From the sequence record PZ386965.1: a stretch of DNA of 64,000 nucleotides. One strand, 5' to 3'. Under the pieces are notes generated by a model. It ran no database searches. It was not told the origin of the DNA and worked only from the letters and a program-made list of their open reading frames with translations. Position numbers and translations under genes: made by a program. The stretch is from a phage. Below are positions 1 to 30,664 of this stretch, piece after piece (within the stretch, counting starts at the first letter, position 1; every line of letters begins with the position of its first letter).

Positions 1-73
1 TAATTTCAGGGACAACGAGAAGATGTTGTCCGGTTGAATACTCCGCCATTATAAATCTCCGTGTTTAAAGCAA

Positions 74-81
74 TATAAATA
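74..81 (+). promoter_or_regulatory. T4-type late promoter candidate (TATAAATA)
   Basis: Exact TATAAATA 46 nt upstream of the ATG at 127; SD AAGGA at 113-117. Confidence 0.4.
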
Positions 82-126
82 GGTTTATCAATTTATCTGT
101 TGCTGTATCAAATAAGGATTTAGTAA

Positions 127-843
127 ATGAATTATAACTCAATATACGAAAAGCTTATTACCAATGCTAAATCAAGAAGTTTAGATGGTTATACAGAACG
201 TCATCACATTATACCACAATGTTTAGGTGGAAGTGATGATGCTTCAAACTTAGTAGACTTAACACCAGAAGAACATTATTTGGCACATCAACTGTTGGTA
301 AAAATCTATCCAGATAATGCCTCTTTAATATACGCTGCTCGTATGATGACCATATCATCTCCTAAAGCAGATAGAAGCAAAAACAAATTATTTGGATGGC
401 TTCGTCGTAAGAATCAAGAAGTTCAAAAGAACAAAGAATTCACGGCTGAAACCCGTAAGAAAATGTCCGAGTCTGCAAAAAATAAACCAAAGATTACCTG
501 TCCACATTGTGGTTTAACTGGAACTGAAGGAAACATGCGTCGTTGGCATTTTGATAATTGTAAACAAGGTCCAACGCCTAAAATAGTAAAATTATCTGAT
601 GATGAAAAACAGAGGATAAGTTCTAAACTTAAAACAATAGAGTGGAAACTCCACACATGTGTACACTGTGGTCTAGAAGGAAAAGCTTGCAATATAGTTC
701 CTCATGAGAAAAACTGCAAACTTAATCCTAATAGAATAAAACCTAATGTAACAATAGTGGAATGTCCATACTGCTCTAAAAGTGGTTCTATATCAAATAT
801 GAAAAGATGGCATTTCGATAATTGTAAATATAAGCCTCATTAA
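127..843 (+). CDS. HNH homing endonuclease with three C-terminal zinc-finger-like repeats
   Basis: 238 aa; N-terminal ERHHIIPxxxGG..N..EH..AH HNH signature; three CxxC...(R/K)RWHFDNCK-type repeats; ATG with SD; only plus-strand gene in the early region. Confidence 0.75.
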   Translation: MNYNSIYEKLITNAKSRSLDGYTERHHIIPQCLGGSDDASNLVDLTPEEHYLAHQLLVKIYPDNASLIYAARMMTISSPKADRSKNKLFGWLRRKNQEVQKNKEFTAETRKKMSESAKNKPKITCPHCGLTGTEGNMRRWHFDNCKQGPTPKIVKLSDDEKQRISSKLKTIEWKLHTCVHCGLEGKACNIVPHEKNCKLNPNRIKPNVTIVECPYCSKSGSISNMKRWHFDNCKYKPH

Positions 844-9004: not shown

Positions 9005-9475
9005 TTAATCATGTTTCCACACCCCATCGGTATTTGACCAAAGTCGCTGATTATCTGATCCTCGCCACAACTTTTTGGTCGGAAGATTTTTCTCATACTT
9101 ACCATCAATAATAACATCAACATATTTAAGCATTTCTAGTTGTTTAATATCTTCAAACTTATATCCTGTCCACAACCAAATGCTTTTACTGGGATAAAGA
9201 TTTTTAATAGTTTGAACCACAGAGTGAATCACATCTCTGTTATCAGGATAGAGAGGGTCACCTCCGGTTATAGTCAATCCTTCTATATAATCATTATTCA
9301 AACATTCAATTAATTGTTCTAGTGTCTCTCCGGTGAATGGAGCACCATTTCTAGCGTTCCATGTTGATTTATTATAACACCCTTCGCATTTATGCAAACA
9401 ACCTGTAACGAAAAGAACGACCCTGCAACCAGGGCCATTAACAAAATCGCAAGGATAAAATCTATCATAATTCAT
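9005..9475 (-). CDS. nrdG: anaerobic ribonucleotide reductase activating protein NrdG
   Basis: 156 aa; CxxxCxxC radical-SAM cluster motif (CLHKCEGC); matches recalled T4 NrdG. Confidence 0.9.
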   Translation of the reverse strand: MNYDRFYPCDFVNGPGCRVVLFVTGCLHKCEGCYNKSTWNARNGAPFTGETLEQLIECLNNDYIEGLTITGGDPLYPDNRDVIHSVVQTIKNLYPSKSIWLWTGYKFEDIKQLEMLKYVDVIIDGKYEKNLPTKKLWRGSDNQRLWSNTDGVWKHD

Positions 9476-11289
9476 TGGTGTTTAACCCTATGCATGATTT
9501 CTTTATTTTTACCGAGATTAAATCCGCGTTCGTTCGGATTTCCAAGATAACCGCATGTTCTTCTTATGGTGTTCATCTTTTTAGGATCAGTTTCTCCACA
9601 AACTGAACAAACAAATCCATTTTCAGTAGGAGTCATTTCATGAGTACTTCCGCATGTAAAACATTTATCCACTGGCATATTAACACCAAAATAATCTAAA
9701 TGTTGCGCAGCATAATCCCAGACAGCCTCAAGTCCCTTTAAATTGTTTTTCATATCTGGAAGTTCAACATAAGAAATGTGACCACCTGTCGCAATGAAAT
9801 GATACGGCGCTTCACGAGAAATCTTTTCAAACGGAGTAATATTTTCTTCTACTGAAACATGGAAACTATTAGTGTACCAGCCTTTATCGGTAACATCTTT
9901 TACGCTTCCATATTTTTCAGTATCAAGTTTACAGAAGCGATAACAAAGGTTTTCAGCAGGAGTAGAATATAAACTAAAAGCAAATCCAGTTCTTTCGGTC
10001 CACTGTTTAAGATGAGCATTCATTTTAGTTAAAATTTCTTGTCCAATATCACGACCAACAAGAATATTCAATTCATGAATACCAATGTATCCTAAAGACA
10101 CTGAACTTCTGCCGTTTTTAAATAACTCAATTATATCGTCATCAGGTTTAAGACGAACCCCGAATGCACCTTCTTGGTAAAGAATAGGAGCAACAGTCGC
10201 TTTAACTCCTTTTAAAGAACTAATTCTACACATCAAGGCTTCAAAACACAGATCCATTCGTTCATTAAATAGCTCAACAAATTTCTGTTCATTGAACTGT
10301 GTTCCAATATAAGAATCTAACGCGATACGAGGAAGATTCAGTGTTACAACACCAAGATTATTACGTCCATCAAGAATTTCATTACCAGTCGAATCTTTCC
10401 ATACGCTCAAGAAACTACGGCAACCCATTGGAGAAACAGGAACTGAAGAACCGGTAATAGCTTTATTATTCTTAACAGAAATAATGTCAGGATACATTCT
10501 TTTGCTTGCACATTCTAACGCAAGTTGTTTAATATCATAGTTTGGATCATCTTTATAAAGATTAACACCTTCTTCAACAAACATAACAAGTTTAGGAAAA
10601 ATAGGAGTTATTCCATCACGACCAAGACCTTTAATGCGGTTTTTAAGAATTGCCTTCTGAATCATTCGTTCAGTCCAGTCGGTTCCTGTTCCAAATGTTA
10701 TAGTAACAAAAGGAGTTTGCCCGTTTGAACTAAAAAGAGTATTTACTTCATATTCATAAGCTTGGAATGCATCGTATACGTCTTTTTCCGTTTTAGATTG
10801 AGCATAATTCAACGCATCAGCGATTTGCCATTTTTCTGCATCCTCAATATGTTTTGCATAGGTGCGTTTAACATAGGGAGAAAGTACTTTATCTACATTA
10901 GCAAAAGTCGTTCCGCCGTATTGATGGGAAGCAACTTGTGCAGTAATTTGTGCCATAATTGCAGTAGCAACACCAATCGATTTAGGCGTTTCGATTTGAG
11001 CATTGCCTAATTTAAAACCATTCTCAAGCATCCCCTTTAAATCGACTAAACAGCAATTAGTAAACGGAAGAGCAGGAGAATAATCAATATCATGCATGTG
11101 GATAATTCCACTTTCATGCGCATTCATAATAAAAGACGGGACCGTATTTTTGGCAATGTGCTTAGACACAATACCAGCCATAAGGTCCCGTTGAGTTGGA
11201 AAAACACGAGAATCTTTATTAGCATTCTCGTTCAAAAGATCTTTATTAGTTTTACGAATTAATCCTTCAATTTCTTTTTCAATTTTCAT
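9472..11289 (-). CDS. nrdD: anaerobic ribonucleoside-triphosphate reductase NrdD (uninterrupted, no intron)
   Basis: 605 aa continuous ORF; C-terminal glycyl-radical motif RRTCGYLG; matches recalled T4 NrdD. Confidence 0.95.
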   Translation of the reverse strand: MKIEKEIEGLIRKTNKDLLNENANKDSRVFPTQRDLMAGIVSKHIAKNTVPSFIMNAHESGIIHMHDIDYSPALPFTNCCLVDLKGMLENGFKLGNAQIETPKSIGVATAIMAQITAQVASHQYGGTTFANVDKVLSPYVKRTYAKHIEDAEKWQIADALNYAQSKTEKDVYDAFQAYEYEVNTLFSSNGQTPFVTITFGTGTDWTERMIQKAILKNRIKGLGRDGITPIFPKLVMFVEEGVNLYKDDPNYDIKQLALECASKRMYPDIISVKNNKAITGSSVPVSPMGCRSFLSVWKDSTGNEILDGRNNLGVVTLNLPRIALDSYIGTQFNEQKFVELFNERMDLCFEALMCRISSLKGVKATVAPILYQEGAFGVRLKPDDDIIELFKNGRSSVSLGYIGIHELNILVGRDIGQEILTKMNAHLKQWTERTGFAFSLYSTPAENLCYRFCKLDTEKYGSVKDVTDKGWYTNSFHVSVEENITPFEKISREAPYHFIATGGHISYVELPDMKNNLKGLEAVWDYAAQHLDYFGVNMPVDKCFTCGSTHEMTPTENGFVCSVCGETDPKKMNTIRRTCGYLGNPNERGFNLGKNKEIMHRVKHQ

Positions 11290-25764: not shown

Positions 25765-26223
25765 CTAGATTTTAATCACTGCTTTAGAAGCTTTTCCTGG
25801 TAGTCGTTTATTGTTAATAATAGCCATTCTGCATTGAAGAGTCTTCATTTTGAATGCTGGATTTTCGCGACAAACTGTAAGTCCTAACCAAAGATTTCCA
25901 TCAGTTATTTCTAAACGGCCTGGGCGATATTCGACACCTTCGACAAAATCTTCATCAACATCTGGACGTGCCGGCATTGATAAAAATTCTGCAACTTCTT
26001 TAACATGATTTTTTACTTTACGAAATAATTCAAAAACGTAATTCTCATCTATTTCTCTCTGGATGGCACGATCTAAGAGATGTTGAGAATACTTGATATG
26101 AAAGCCCGGTAGTCCAAGAGACTTTGCAGCATCTTTTATACTGGCATTTATTTTGCGGAACTCCGTTTCAAAGATTCGACGGAGTTTATTGCGGCGGATA
26201 AAAACGTCTGAATTGATAGTCAT
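25765..26223 (-). CDS. regB: endoribonuclease RegB
   Basis: 152 aa; MTINSDVFIRRNKLRR...YSQHLLDRAIQREIDE matches recalled T4 RegB; GGAGA SD. Confidence 0.9.
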   Translation of the reverse strand: MTINSDVFIRRNKLRRIFETEFRKINASIKDAAKSLGLPGFHIKYSQHLLDRAIQREIDENYVFELFRKVKNHVKEVAEFLSMPARPDVDEDFVEGVEYRPGRLEITDGNLWLGLTVCRENPAFKMKTLQCRMAIINNKRLPGKASKAVIKI

Positions 26224-26579: not shown

Positions 26580-26824
26580 TAGTATTTTTCCTCTGGTTGA
26601 AATACCGCACGACAAGCCCACATACTAGCTTCCTTTAGGCGTTCTTTAGCACAGTTCAATTGGGACAAAGCCGTCAGAGCTTCAGGAGTATTTGCTGATA
26701 ATGCTTCTTCTGCCAGGGCGTCTAGAATAAGTCCTAAACGAACTTCGGCATCTTTAATAGCGTTCACTTTACCGATTTTATCATCGGTATGCGGCTTGTA
26801 GCCTTTGATGTCTTCAATCGACAT
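26579..26824 (-). CDS. hypothetical helical protein (vs.4-like position)
   Basis: Trimmed to ATG ([12 protein letters not shown]) with GAGGAA SD; 81 aa. Confidence 0.45.
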
Positions 26825-27038
26825 AAGGAATTTCCTCATCTGTGGCAAGGTCATATTCGACCAATTGGATAGGCTCATTAATACCATATCCACGTACAGT
26901 GATATCAGTTGTCGGATAGTTTCCAGTAATATCACCCATTCTAAATGCTTCAATGAATGATTGCTCGCCTGAGCAACTAAACCAGGCGGCAAAACATTTT
27001 AAAACATCTTCAGACCCTTCTATAATCAATTTAGTCAT
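26814..27038 (-). CDS. hypothetical acidic protein
   Basis: 74-aa ORF; start overlaps upstream stop. Confidence 0.45.
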   Translation of the reverse strand: MTKLIIEGSEDVLKCFAAWFSCSGEQSFIEAFRMGDITGNYPTTDITVRGYGINEPIQLVEYDLATDEEIPYVD

Positions 27039-27400
27039 TATAGACTCTCGGTAAAGGTACGAGCGATAACGTCGCGCTGCTGTTCCGGAGTCAGAGAGTT
27101 AAAGCGAACTGCATAACCGGATACACGGATGGTCAGCTGCGGATATTTTTCCGGATGCTTAACTGCATCTTCCAGAGTTTCACGACGCAGAACGTTAACG
27201 TTCAGGTGCTGACCACCTTCAATTTTAACTTTAGGTTGATGTTCAATTTCAATTTCACGAGCATTCAAACCGTAGAAAATTTCTGGATCTACAATAGCGT
27301 CTTCTTTAAAAGTCTTAGAGACAATAATCCGGGCTTGAGTACCGTCTTCAAAATAAATAGTGCCTTTATGTTCACCTTCAAGAATTTGATATGCTTTCAT
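27038..27400 (-). CDS. autonomous glycyl-radical cofactor (GrcA/YfiD-like)
   Basis: 120 aa; C-terminal ...[32 protein letters not shown] identical in pattern to E. coli GrcA glycyl-radical domain. Confidence 0.85.
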
Positions 27401-27406
27401 ATAACC

Positions 27407-27715
27407 TCAATTAGAAAATAAATTTATCCAAGTTTTTTCTTTAATCAAAAATGGGTCGGAATTAAACGCCATTAAACTTTGGGTGATTAATCCTTTAAAT
27501 GGCCCATCAATAAATTCCATTTTGAAATGCGGAATACTAGTCATCAACCGTGCATTAGGAGCGGTACAAAGAACCTGCTGCCCTGCGAACGGACCTTTAG
27601 TCAAACGGTATCGTTTAGGTTTAAAATGGTAAATCTCATAATTTTCTACAAGTGCCCTTTTATTGCATACTGGACTGTTATAACAATATTCAAAAACTTC
27701 AATAGTTGTCATCAT
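27407..27715 (-). CDS. hypothetical protein
   Basis: Trimmed to ATG overlapping upstream stop (ATGA). Confidence 0.4.
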   Translation of the reverse strand: MMTTIEVFEYCYNSPVCNKRALVENYEIYHFKPKRYRLTKGPFAGQQVLCTAPNARLMTSIPHFKMEFIDGPFKGLITQSLMAFNSDPFLIKEKTWINLFSN

Positions 27716-28251
27716 TGCATTCCAATCACAAAAAATTGAGGACGAGCAATACCACCGATGCAATATTTGCTTTTGCAACAGTGTTGGACTGTTTTAATAT
27801 GGATGTCGTAAATCTTATCCATATCAGGAGCTTTAATAGGCTCGTCAATTATGTACAGAATACGAGAAAGTGTTAATCCACGGAATTTATGTCCTTCATT
27901 ACCAATAAAACTACGGACAGAATCAGTAAATAAACGGAATCGAATATCATCGCTAGAATATCGAGAAAATTCTTTTTCAATGTTGCCAGCAGAAATTTTA
28001 GCATAAGCTGAAGTATTAGAAAGAACAATAACCGTTCCGCCATCATACAACCAATTAGCAGCAAAATTAGTCACAGCAATTGATTTACCTGATTGTCGGC
28101 CGCCGTCTAAACGAAGTGTACAGTACTGCTTGAGTACGTCTTCAAATGGTGGGACATAACCGTTCTTACAAATTTCTTCTACTCTAGCATCAGAATGGTG
28201 TGTAAAAGCATTCATCAGGGATAGATAAGGTCCAGTTAAAAATGTTCTCAT
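27712..28251 (-). CDS. P-loop-containing protein
   Basis: Trimmed to ATG (MRTFLTGPYL); GGRQSGKS Walker-A-like motif; ORF-track start is GTG. Confidence 0.45.
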   Translation of the reverse strand: MRTFLTGPYLSLMNAFTHHSDARVEEICKNGYVPPFEDVLKQYCTLRLDGGRQSGKSIAVTNFAANWLYDGGTVIVLSNTSAYAKISAGNIEKEFSRYSSDDIRFRLFTDSVRSFIGNEGHKFRGLTLSRILYIIDEPIKAPDMDKIYDIHIKTVQHCCKSKYCIGGIARPQFFVIGMQ

Positions 28252-28423
28252 ATTATTTCTCTTAAGGTTTGGGCCATTCCGTGGCACATGTTAGGTCCTT
28301 CGACTCGCTATGTAAACCCATTACCGCATTGCGCTCGACCTTATTACAGGTTGGAAAAGGTACATCACTCAGAGGACTCGACGTTCATGAGGAGAGGTTG
28401 CGTTTCCCTTTATTAGGCAAGAA

Positions 28424-28753
28424 TTATACTCTAGGCTTTTGAGCTTGTTTGGTATTGGATTCCCATGCGGCTTTGGTAATTTTGTTAGCGGCATAACCAA
28501 AGGCATTAGATAGAACACCTTTAGAGTTGAATACATCCAATCCAATAAGTACACCGGCTGCGTTAAATTTAGGAGCAAAGTACGCATTAGTTTTAGAAAG
28601 AGCTTTTTTCAATTCAGGGTCTTGAACCAAGCCATCAAAAACGCCTTTACTATTTACTTTATATGTTACTTTGGGATTCTTACCTTCTTCGATAGCAGCT
28701 TTCTGTTCCGCAGATAATGTAACTTCAGTGATAAACTCCTGATATGTTTTCAT
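28424..28753 (-). CDS. internal protein (capsid-targeting sequence MKTYQEFITE)
   Basis: 109 aa; N-terminal MKTYQEFI..E leader typical of T4 IPI/IPII/IPIII precursors processed by the gp21 prohead protease. Confidence 0.6.
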   Translation of the reverse strand: MKTYQEFITEVTLSAEQKAAIEEGKNPKVTYKVNSKGVFDGLVQDPELKKALSKTNAYFAPKFNAAGVLIGLDVFNSKGVLSNAFGYAANKITKAAWESNTKQAQKPRV

Positions 28754-28778: not shown

Positions 28779-29093
28779 TTATTCTTTAGGGAAGTTTTTA
28801 GAGTATGCATCATAAAGTTTATTACCAATACGACGGAAGACTTTAGCTGCAAAACGGTTTTCAGGGTTTTTAATCATGATTTGCATCATGTAAGTTCCTG
28901 CATCCGAAAGAGCTTCTTCATAGTACCCATTAATTTCTTTAAGAGTCCTACGTTTACCACCAGGACCGTCAACAGTAATTTTCCATTTACCTGTAGAAGT
29001 GCGGCTCGGTGGCTCAACTTGTTCAATCCAAATATAACCACCTTCAACGCGTTGGTTGGCGGATTCTGCAATAAATTCTTTATACGTTTTCAT
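28779..29093 (-). CDS. internal protein (capsid-targeting sequence MKTYKEFIAE)
   Basis: 104 aa; CTS leader; own early promoter at 29125-29154. Confidence 0.6.
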   Translation of the reverse strand: MKTYKEFIAESANQRVEGGYIWIEQVEPPSRTSTGKWKITVDGPGGKRRTLKEINGYYEEALSDAGTYMMQIMIKNPENRFAAKVFRRIGNKLYDAYSKNFPKE

Positions 29094-29157: not shown

Positions 29158-29418
29158 TTAAGCTTTACCTCCAGAAATAATTCCGAAGTTGTTAAAATCG
29201 TATCCAATATCGTCAACATCTACTTTAGGACTTACTACAACATAAGCAATTTCACTACGTTTTGCATAGGTGTTGATTTCTTTACCATCGCCACCTAAGA
29301 AAGAATACCCATTACGTTTTAATGAGCCAAAGTCTTCCGCATCACCAATGAAAGCTTTAACTTTAAATTTGGGGTCTTTGGCATCTGCTTCAATGATAAA
29401 TTCTTGATACATTTTCAT
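29158..29418 (-). CDS. internal protein (capsid-targeting sequence MKMYQEFIIE)
   Basis: Trimmed to ATG with AAGGA SD; 86 aa. Confidence 0.55.
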   Translation of the reverse strand: MKMYQEFIIEADAKDPKFKVKAFIGDAEDFGSLKRNGYSFLGGDGKEINTYAKRSEIAYVVVSPKVDVDDIGYDFNNFGIISGGKA

Positions 29419-29425
29419 TTTTTCC

Positions 29426-29839
29426 TTAGTAAATTGATTTACCATAGTATTTGTACCAAGACGGCCGTTGAGCAATTTTTTCATCTAAGCGTGCTTGACT
29501 TATCGCAATGGACGCTTCGGACGGGACGTAATTATTACGAAATTCTACAGGAATGTCGGAAATATCCTGGACAGTCGTGTCCTTGATTTTGAAACCACGT
29601 TTCAAGCATTCAGCGATTAGCTCGATTTGACGTAAACGTAAAAATTCGAGTTTGTCGTAAAAGAATGTTACGTGACCTGTGCCTAAGATAAATGTTGGAG
29701 AGATTTTAAAATCCTTTACACGTTTACCGTTTTGAACATGTTTACGGACTGCACCAAATACGCGTGGTAATTCACGATACTCGGCCATAAGATGTTGGTC
29801 GGCCAGTTCAGAAACAAGTGTTAAATTGATACGGGTCAT
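29426..29839 (-). CDS. denV: endonuclease V (pyrimidine-dimer DNA glycosylase) DenV
   Basis: 137 aa from [29 protein letters not shown]; matches recalled T4 DenV. Confidence 0.95.
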
Positions 29840-29866
29840 AATTTCCTCCAAGTAGTTGATGAATGT

Positions 29867-29897: not shown

Positions 29898-30179
29898 CTA
29901 TTTTTCTGAAGCGCCTGAAATATATTTTTCAAGACGTTGTTTCATCAGCGAGCCGTTCTTAGCAATTTCTTCCGGTTTATCGCACATGCGCAACAATGCT
30001 TCAAGCTTAACGATATCACTGGTACGTTCAAATTTGCGAGTATCTATCTTACTAGCAAGTTCAGAAATACGTGCTAATAGACTTTCAGCTTCAACCAAAG
30101 CTGCACCTAGCTTAGTTGCAAATGTGTCAGTAGCTTCGTTAAGAATAGATTCTGATAAAAATTCACTATATGTTTTCAT
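29898..30179 (-). CDS. internal protein (capsid-targeting sequence [10 protein letters not shown])
   Basis: Trimmed to ATG; start codon overlaps lysozyme stop (ATGA); 93 aa. Confidence 0.55.
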
Positions 30180-30664
30180 ATATACGCTTTCCAAGTTCCT
30201 GTTTTAAATGTTGAGATTACGCGTTTCGCTCGATTAGGTGTCTGACGATACCATTTAGATTGGGCTAGATTTACTGCCGCCTCGTCCCAACGTTTCTGTT
30301 GAAGCATACGAAGAGAATTAGTAAAACCGGCAACGCCTGCTACACCCATTTGGAAGACCATATTGATCAATGCACATCGACGAACCGCATCTAAAGAATC
30401 ATATACCGGTTTAAGTTTAGCATTACCCAAGATTCCTCGAACGGCTTTATCAACGTCTTCATTAAATAGCTTTTCAGCCTCATCAAGGGTAATTGTACCG
30501 TTGCATTTACGACCGATCATTCTGTCAAGTTCAGCTTTAGCTACGGCTAAAGACGGGTTCTTTGTTACTAAATGGCCTATGCCAATCGTCCAAAAGCCTT
30601 CAGTGTCTTTATATAAAGTCAGTCTAAGACCTTCGTCATTACGAAGCATTTCAAATATATTCAT
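30176..30664 (-). CDS. e: lysozyme (endolysin, T4 e type)
   Basis: 162 aa from [32 protein letters not shown]; catalytic E11/D20/T26 context conserved; matches recalled T4 lysozyme. Confidence 0.95.

Follow-up and report, generated by a model that had tools for sequence, protein, structure and literature searches.

A T4 vs.6 ortholog in a Mosigvirus-type phage: a probable spare glycyl-radical domain for host pyruvate formate-lyase, with a core that appears to derive from host grcA

The 64-kb window analysed here (the whole stretch of phage DNA) carries, at 27038..27400 on the minus strand, a gene for a 120-aa autonomous glycyl-radical cofactor (GrcA-like spare part), which, judged by alignment and gene order, is the ortholog of T4 vs.6 (protein Y06I), in a Mosigvirus-type T4 relative. 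Very probably, its product is a 14-kDa spare part that would re-arm the pyruvate formate-lyase (PFL) of the host, and the region encoding its radical domain would have been overwritten recently by the host's grcA gene. That a phage can encode a GrcA-like spare part with a T4 homolog is already known, the T4 protein having been characterised in 2001 and such proteins being routinely annotated as GrcA in phages. No paper describing the mosaic structure of vs.6 was found in a search that did not extend to the T4 genome review (PMC150520) and Wagner et al. 2001.

The gene was identified from the open reading frame list, Pfam and PHROG matches, and the alignment with T4. Its reading frame is intact and runs over 120 codons from an ATG to a TAA stop. 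A Shine-Dalgarno sequence, GAGG (27405..27408, minus strand), read directly in TAATTGAGGTTATATG, precedes the ATG by 4 bases and shares nucleotides with the TGA stop of the vs.7-like gene upstream, which is of unknown function (27407..27778, minus strand, PHROG 2049). At the other end, the last four codons and the stop (27038..27052, minus strand, ACCGAGAGTCTATAATG) show four synonymous differences from E. coli grcA in the codon alignment. The stop and the next gene's ATG overlap as TAATG, and a GAGAG stretch within 27038..27052 would serve as the ribosome-binding site of this downstream gene; in phage Mineola, an annotated ribosome-binding site for the next gene occupies the equivalent position. 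The downstream gene, at the position of T4 vs.5, encodes 74 aa of unknown function (26814..27038, minus strand, PHROG 1986). An 88-aa open reading frame on the opposite strand (27155..27421, plus strand), also taken from the list and antisense to vs.6, is likely a non-coding shadow. Promoter and terminator scans between 25.5 and 30.5 kb returned counts no higher than in shuffled sequence.

Only one domain match was obtained for the 120-aa protein, to Pfam Gly_radical, of which the final 43 positions are covered (E=2e-18; 67.3 bits, the cutoff being 22.2), a score well outside what chance would give. The protein is small (about 14 kDa) and free-standing, and lacks the catalytic barrel of glycyl-radical enzymes. 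The glycyl-radical fingerprint RVxG[FWY] reads R92-V-S-G95-Y96, with the glycine intact, and opens the motif RVSGYAVRF (residues 92-100). The predicted radical site, Gly95 (codon GGT, 27116..27118, minus strand), corresponds in the alignment to GrcA Gly102 and PflB Gly734. Among solved structures, the best phmmer match is E. coli YfiD (PDB 6owr, E=2e-42, residues 21-120 aligned), with phage residues 21-60 facing YfiD 27-67, and the second is PflB residues 696-759 (E=3e-26), in which 49 of 64 positions are identical to the phage C-terminus, which is thus a duplicate of the C-terminus of PflB. The radical loop is the same as in PflB (PDB 1H16, 2PFL), but the ten-stranded barrel and the catalytic Cys418/Cys419 of this enzyme are missing from the free-standing phage protein.

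In a three-way alignment, phage residues 61-120 are identical to E. coli GrcA 68-127 at 60 of 60 positions. The original prediction, made from the letters of the DNA, had recognized the GrcA/YfiD pattern in the C-terminal 60 residues, including RVSGYAVRF, and this identity bears it out. It had also named the absence of the radical glycine from a correct alignment as the result that would speak against it; aligned with GrcA and T4 Y06I, the glycine is present, Gly95 facing Gly102. Compared with E. coli GrcA/YfiD (P68066; NMR structure 6OWR), the phage protein shares the radical domain residue for residue, homology is seen from residue 21 onward, and identity over the whole protein is 71%. Nevertheless, it is seven residues shorter, its first 60 residues are only about 25-30% identical (an estimate from the alignment) and are encoded by AT-rich DNA, and its gene is expressed from a phage transcription unit, not from the host grcA promoter. 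The top NCBIfam match is TIGR04365 spare_glycyl (E=6e-47), to which only residues 18-120 align; the score of 159.1 bits falls under the equivalog cutoff of 170 bits because the N-terminal 20-60 residues of the phage protein differ from those of bacterial GrcA. PHROG 1209, a phage subfamily, is matched over the full length (6e-63).

The T4 homolog named in the original prediction, Y06I, is the product of vs.6, 93% identical to the window protein over 120 aa and found in the same gene order. T4 Vs.6 (NP_049730, NC_000866 63557..63919) also counts 120 aa, and seven of the eight amino-acid differences between the two proteins fall within the first 57 residues; residue 73 is His in T4, and Arg in both the window phage and E. 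coli. In T4, the neighbours of vs.6 are vs.7 and vs.5, with denV further upstream and regB further downstream. This order is the same in the window, where denV is found at 29426..29851 (minus strand), a vs.8-like gene at 27712..28287, and regB at 25765..26223. The T4 product is annotated 'autonomous glycyl radical cofactor GrcA' in NC_000866. The 2.5 kb around vs.6 are 97-98.6% identical to Mosigvirus-type coliphages, and many Mosigvirus records name the ortholog 'autonomous glycyl radical cofactor'. Homologs were detected by tblastn in 1,589 phage records, most of them Straboviridae of enterobacteria, Aeromonas, and Vibrio, and also in T5-like Demerecviridae and one jumbo Erwinia phage. Nolan et al. 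2006 (PMC1524935) counted vs.6 among a small set of T4 ORFs without known function that every T4-like genome in their comparison retains.

The genomic location of the homologs varies. In two distant phages, Aeromonas phage 31 and Salmonella phage Spc35, the homolog sits directly downstream of tRNA genes (101..175 in the phage 31 locus, 29..274 in the Spc35 locus) instead of in the T4 vs cluster, so that relocation or separate acquisition must have taken place in different phage groups. Other features were seen upstream of vs.6 in the window. The denV open reading frame is listed from a TTG; translation probably begins four codons further on, at an ATG (MTRINL...), as it does in T4 endonuclease V, a protein of 138 aa by the T4 coordinates. 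Four open reading frames of about 100 aa, all on the minus strand (28424..28753, 28779..29093, 29158..29484, and 29898..30194), show motifs including MKTYQEFI, MKTYKEFIAE, and MKMYQEFIIE, which we take to be of the N-terminal capsid-targeting type of T4 internal proteins. Three of the four lie between denV and the vs.8-like gene, where T4 is gene-free, and this region, which exceeds its T4 counterpart by about 1 kb, resembles a variable locus for internal proteins.

The function of the window protein rests on its orthology to Y06I. Andorfer et al. 2021 (PMC8683613), citing Wagner et al. 2001 (BBRC 285:456), present YfiD and T4 Y06I as the only two 'spare part' proteins validated so far: PFL activase puts a glycyl radical on YfiD or Y06I, and the activated protein binds oxygen-cleaved PFL, of which the activity is restored. 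They also describe the N-terminal 60 residues of YfiD as disordered, and the N-terminal region as important for radical installation. A 2026 review (PMC13450708), also citing Wagner et al. 2001, gives the same picture. Because the radical domain is identical to that of E. coli, the same rescue mechanism is the best supported for the window protein. The host activase PflA would install the radical on Gly95; once oxygen has cut the host PflB at Gly734, the activated phage protein would dock into the damaged enzyme and restore the production of acetyl-CoA and formate. The phage shuts down host expression and degrades the host DNA, so that host GrcA would not be replenished during infection, and it is for this reason that the phage would need its own copy. 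In the microaerobic gut, a PFL kept alive in this way would sustain the energy supply, as well as the formate that is the reductant of the phage NrdD.

The client best supported by these comparisons is, thus, host PFL, possibly with TdcE as a second one, and the best-supported activase is host PflA. The proposal that host PFL is served, already part of the original prediction, appears likely, given the biochemical validation of both Y06I and YfiD (PMC8683613). The phage-specific N-terminus may confer activation kinetics or a control differing from those of GrcA. No in vivo phenotype of a vs.6 mutant was found in the searchable literature. An opposite role can also be considered, in which the protein would be a take-over decoy, titrating host PflA or occupying PflB, and thereby redirecting or shutting down fermentation. 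Many small early T4 proteins modify the host, and the N-terminal region, which governs activation in YfiD according to Andorfer et al. (PMC8683613), is phage-specific and conserved among phages. But the T4 ortholog restores PFL activity in vitro (PMC8683613, citing Wagner et al. 2001), and the radical domain is kept identical to the functional one of the host, with its glycine intact, while a decoy would have no need of a working radical site. Such a role is, therefore, improbable, and the repair of host PFL is the reading retained below.

The window also encodes an anaerobic ribonucleotide reductase, NrdD (9472..11289, minus strand; Pfam NRDD, 8.5e-171, plus Gly_radical), and its radical-SAM activase, NrdG (9005..9475, minus strand; Pfam Fer4_12, 7e-49, plus Radical_SAM). 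A further possibility is that the vs.6 protein is a spare radical domain for this NrdD, activated by NrdG and forming a module with both genes. Like PFL, NrdD is a glycyl-radical enzyme and is cut by oxygen at its glycine, and both NrdD and NrdG are encoded by the phage. On the strength of the common Pfam domain, Nolan et al. 2006 (PMC1524935) guessed at a role in nucleotide metabolism, and Andorfer et al. 2021 (PMC8683613) speculate on spare parts for other glycyl-radical enzymes. The sequences, however, point elsewhere. BLASTP of the vs.6 protein against the phage NrdD, C-terminus included, gave no similarity (E=6.3). The radical loop of NrdD, TIRRTCGYLG (Gly580), follows a Cys-rich zinc motif, and the vs.6 protein has neither this RRTCGYLG-type loop nor the zinc motif, both of which would be expected of a spare part for a class III reductase. 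It carries instead a PFL-type loop, with the 49 of 64 positions shared with PflB 696-759 and the 60 of 60 shared with GrcA, and its core is copied from host grcA, not from nrdD.

The location of the genes leads to the same conclusion. The nrdD/nrdG pair lies 15,749 bp downstream of vs.6, with about 25 ORFs in between, a distance that rules out an operon or module. The placement of the gene in the same region as nrdD/nrdG, as originally described, thus holds only loosely: both genes are in the window, but 15.7 kb away. The repair module proposed at the same time has to be given up, the genes forming neither a physical nor a transcriptional unit, and NrdG being the activase of NrdD rather than a repair factor. 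The phage's own NrdD, the other client then suggested, is unlikely as such, and the whole scheme of a spare part for NrdD is highly improbable. A metabolic link between vs.6 and NrdD is nevertheless plausible: formate, which class III reductases use as their reductant, is produced by PFL, the formate source of the cell. In the class III reductases characterised so far, formate supplies both reducing equivalents, and the presence of a formate site in T4 NrdD has been a matter of discussion (PMC4493059). The repair of host PFL, thus, remains the role assigned to vs.6 in what follows.

The second feature of the gene is its mosaic structure. A host-identical core, codons 61-116 (27053..27220, minus strand), encodes the glycyl-radical domain and was compared with grcA in a 168-nt codon alignment. 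The first 60 codons (27221..27400, minus strand) form a 5' half of phage type, as seen from GC content, comparison with T4 and with Klebsiella phage TU02, and megablast. The core is identical to grcA of E. coli strain 1190 at 167 of 168 nt, the one difference being synonymous, and to that of E. coli O157:H7 PV15-279 at 168 of 168; identity of at least 99% was found for 2,823 of 5,432 E. coli records, and some strains reach 100%. A megablast search of the 64-kb window against 5,426 complete E. coli genomes gave a single matching stretch, 27038..27222, while the 5' half had no megablast match to E. coli. GC content is 33% in the first 177 nt versus 49-51% in the 3' part. These first 177 nt are 88% identical to T4 and 75% to TU02.

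T4 vs.6 is divided in the same way, with a 5' half of phage type and a 3' core of E. coli type, and this core differs from grcA of strain 1190 by one non-synonymous change. Between the window phage and T4, the core is 98.8% identical and the neighbouring genes 71-88%; the contrast between 5' half and core is significant (Fisher p=4e-5). These comparisons indicate that 168-185 nt of the radical domain were recently overwritten by homologous recombination with host grcA. For the gene as a whole, the best explanation would be a capture that took place long ago, the 5' half showing the composition and phylogeny of the phage; that the whole gene was captured anciently is argued from protein-level homology, which starts at residue 21.

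Near-identity of the 3' half to grcA could also have been produced by selection at the nucleotide level (codon usage, mRNA structure), or by contamination with host reads. In favor of selection, grcA codons are typical of highly expressed genes, and the domain hardly varies in protein sequence across Enterobacterales. The comparison was, therefore, extended to grcA of 80 other Enterobacterales and Pasteurellales species. In these species, the same 168 nt are 75-93% identical to E. coli, even though they encode nearly the same residues. Bacteria with the identical 56 residues differ at 7-16% of nucleotides (identity to E. coli being 92.3% for Citrobacter amalonaticus and 83.9% for Erwinia amylovora), Salmonella enterica stands at 82.7%, and only another Escherichia species attains 98.8% in the core. 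Phages of other genera behave alike, their DNA having diverged under a domain that is unchanged or nearly so: Margaery has identical residues in the core at 85.7% nucleotide identity, and identity to whichever host was tested lies within 71-86% for VAC66, Kc304, Phi1, Aeromonas phage 31, Spc35, and Vibrio phage QD01. Nucleotide-level constraint is, thus, ruled out as the cause of the identity by the 80 bacterial genes and by phages with diverged DNA and the same residues. Selection and contamination are both opposed by the occurrence of the pattern in T4, as well as in some 640 independent phage records at a level of at least 95%, and by the fact that Klebsiella phages have the allele of K. 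pneumoniae in place of that of E. coli. Within the reach of sequence comparison, both explanations are already contradicted and retain next to no probability; recombination with host grcA is, hence, preferred.

The core allele follows the host species. In Klebsiella phage TU02 (Jiaodavirus), vs.6 from nt 181 onward is 95.4% identical to K. pneumoniae grcA versus 85.7% to E. coli grcA, and the cores of Klebsiella Jiaodavirus phages are 95-98% identical to the K. pneumoniae gene. At the 20 core positions that differ between E. coli and K. pneumoniae grcA, the window phage, of which the usual host is E. coli, has the E. coli base at 19 and the K. pneumoniae base at 1, and T4, with the same usual host, at 20 and 0. 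For phages usually infecting K. pneumoniae, the corresponding counts are 1 and 18 (TU02), and 3 and 16 (Mineola). The 5' halves of these four phages are mutually homologous and AT-rich, with 72-75% identity between E. coli and Klebsiella phages. An E. coli-type core was found in 252 phage records at no less than 99% identity and in 386 at 95-99%, the carriers being almost all E. coli or Shigella phages among the sampled rows. Another 107 phage records are 95-99% identical to the K. pneumoniae core (up to 98.2%), nearly all from Klebsiella phages among the matches listed. No core in the phage database reached 95% identity to S. enterica grcA, so no Salmonella-tracking lineage was seen.

Some individual records deserve mention. 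Salmonella phage PSE-D1 (ON550260.1) carries a K. pneumoniae-type core (97.6%), and Pseudomonas phage vB_PSGBLB0006 (PV654520.1) an E. coli-type core (99.4%); these alleles may record a recent host other than the named one, or the host label may be questionable. On the bacterial side, the reading frame of grcA in Klebsiella aerogenes NCTC10006 'plasmid 2' (200..523) is broken by a frameshift immediately ahead of the radical motif, and the annotated CDS is shorter; the probable cause is a sequencing error, in what would be a piece of chromosome deposited as a plasmid. Among PLSDB entries, several 'plasmids' of 0.3-5 Mb with grcA or pflB likewise resemble chromosomal sequence.

Regarding the direction of transfer, the divergence of E. 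coli grcA from its relatives is equal in the 5' part and in the core. The host gene has, therefore, been passed on in one piece, and the phage was the recipient; the reverse direction is ruled out by this even divergence, together with the host GC content of the core. Homologous recombination between T4-type phages and homologous DNA present in the cell is well established. The two host-specific alleles indicate, to the point of essentially demonstrating it at the level of sequence comparison, that at least two independent host-to-phage gene conversions of the 3' segment have occurred. Conversion would be confined to the segment where protein constraint has kept enough DNA homology, which would explain why the 5' edge lies at codon 60/61 in both phage lineages.

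The cores have also changed after conversion. Seven cores of E. coli phages show 1-5 scattered differences each from E. coli, and 11 of the 15 distinct private changes in such cores run from GC to AT, versus 4 from AT to GC. In a comparison of two Mosigviruses, O157 typing phage 13 and FP43, in both of which vs.6 occupies 21..383 of the locus, no difference is seen in the 5' 177 nt, while the core shows 9 in 168 nt (Fisher p=0.0014 for 5' half versus core). These changes would fit a GC-rich foreign patch drifting toward phage composition. Other host species were considered as the source of the private substitutions and rejected, as no single donor fits the scattered, mostly GC to AT changes. 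Three of the four E. coli polymorphic sites sampled (codons 64.3, 73.3, and 94.3) show the same alternative base in some phages, the probability of this sharing arising by chance being put by a rough hand estimate at 0.01-0.15, with a small sample and one site biased by strain choice. The shared polymorphisms hint at several exchange events.

Taken further, these data make it somewhat probable that T4-type phages repeatedly overwrite some 170-185 nt of vs.6 with the grcA allele of their current host species (the E. coli allele in Tequatrovirus and Mosigvirus, the K. pneumoniae allele in Jiaodavirus), the patch decaying AT-ward between conversions. A single conversion in each host species, with later spread among the phages, would account for these data as well. 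That conversion is ongoing and adaptive, matching the phage protein to the PflA and PflB of the host, is hypothetical.

Host-phage exchange of the cyanophage gene psbA was reportedly described by Zeidner in 2005 and Sullivan in 2006. This is likewise a phage-borne metabolic gene of host origin that recombines intragenically with host alleles. Unlike psbA, vs.6 shows a patch of about 170-185 nt inside a 363-nt gene, in a strictly lytic coliphage that degrades host DNA, and this patch matches the host at the species level (E. coli versus K. pneumoniae). The vs.6 mosaic would, thus, be a new instance of a known phenomenon. The evolutionary side is the part worth a short follow-up, the core being the only host-matching stretch in 64 kb and falling within the allelic diversity of E. 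coli.

For the biology of these viruses, the presence of vs.6 would mean that T4-type coliphages invest in the anaerobic pyruvate metabolism of their host under oxygen stress, which fits the microaerobic gut. If recurrent exchange is true, vs.6 would naturally report gene conversion from host to phage, in a virus that is strictly lytic and breaks down the DNA of its host, and its core allele would mark recent host history. Should recurrence be confirmed, the gene would offer, in the best-studied phage-host pair, a simple system for measuring the frequency of recombination between lytic phages and their hosts, and the same system could tell whether metabolic genes track hosts.
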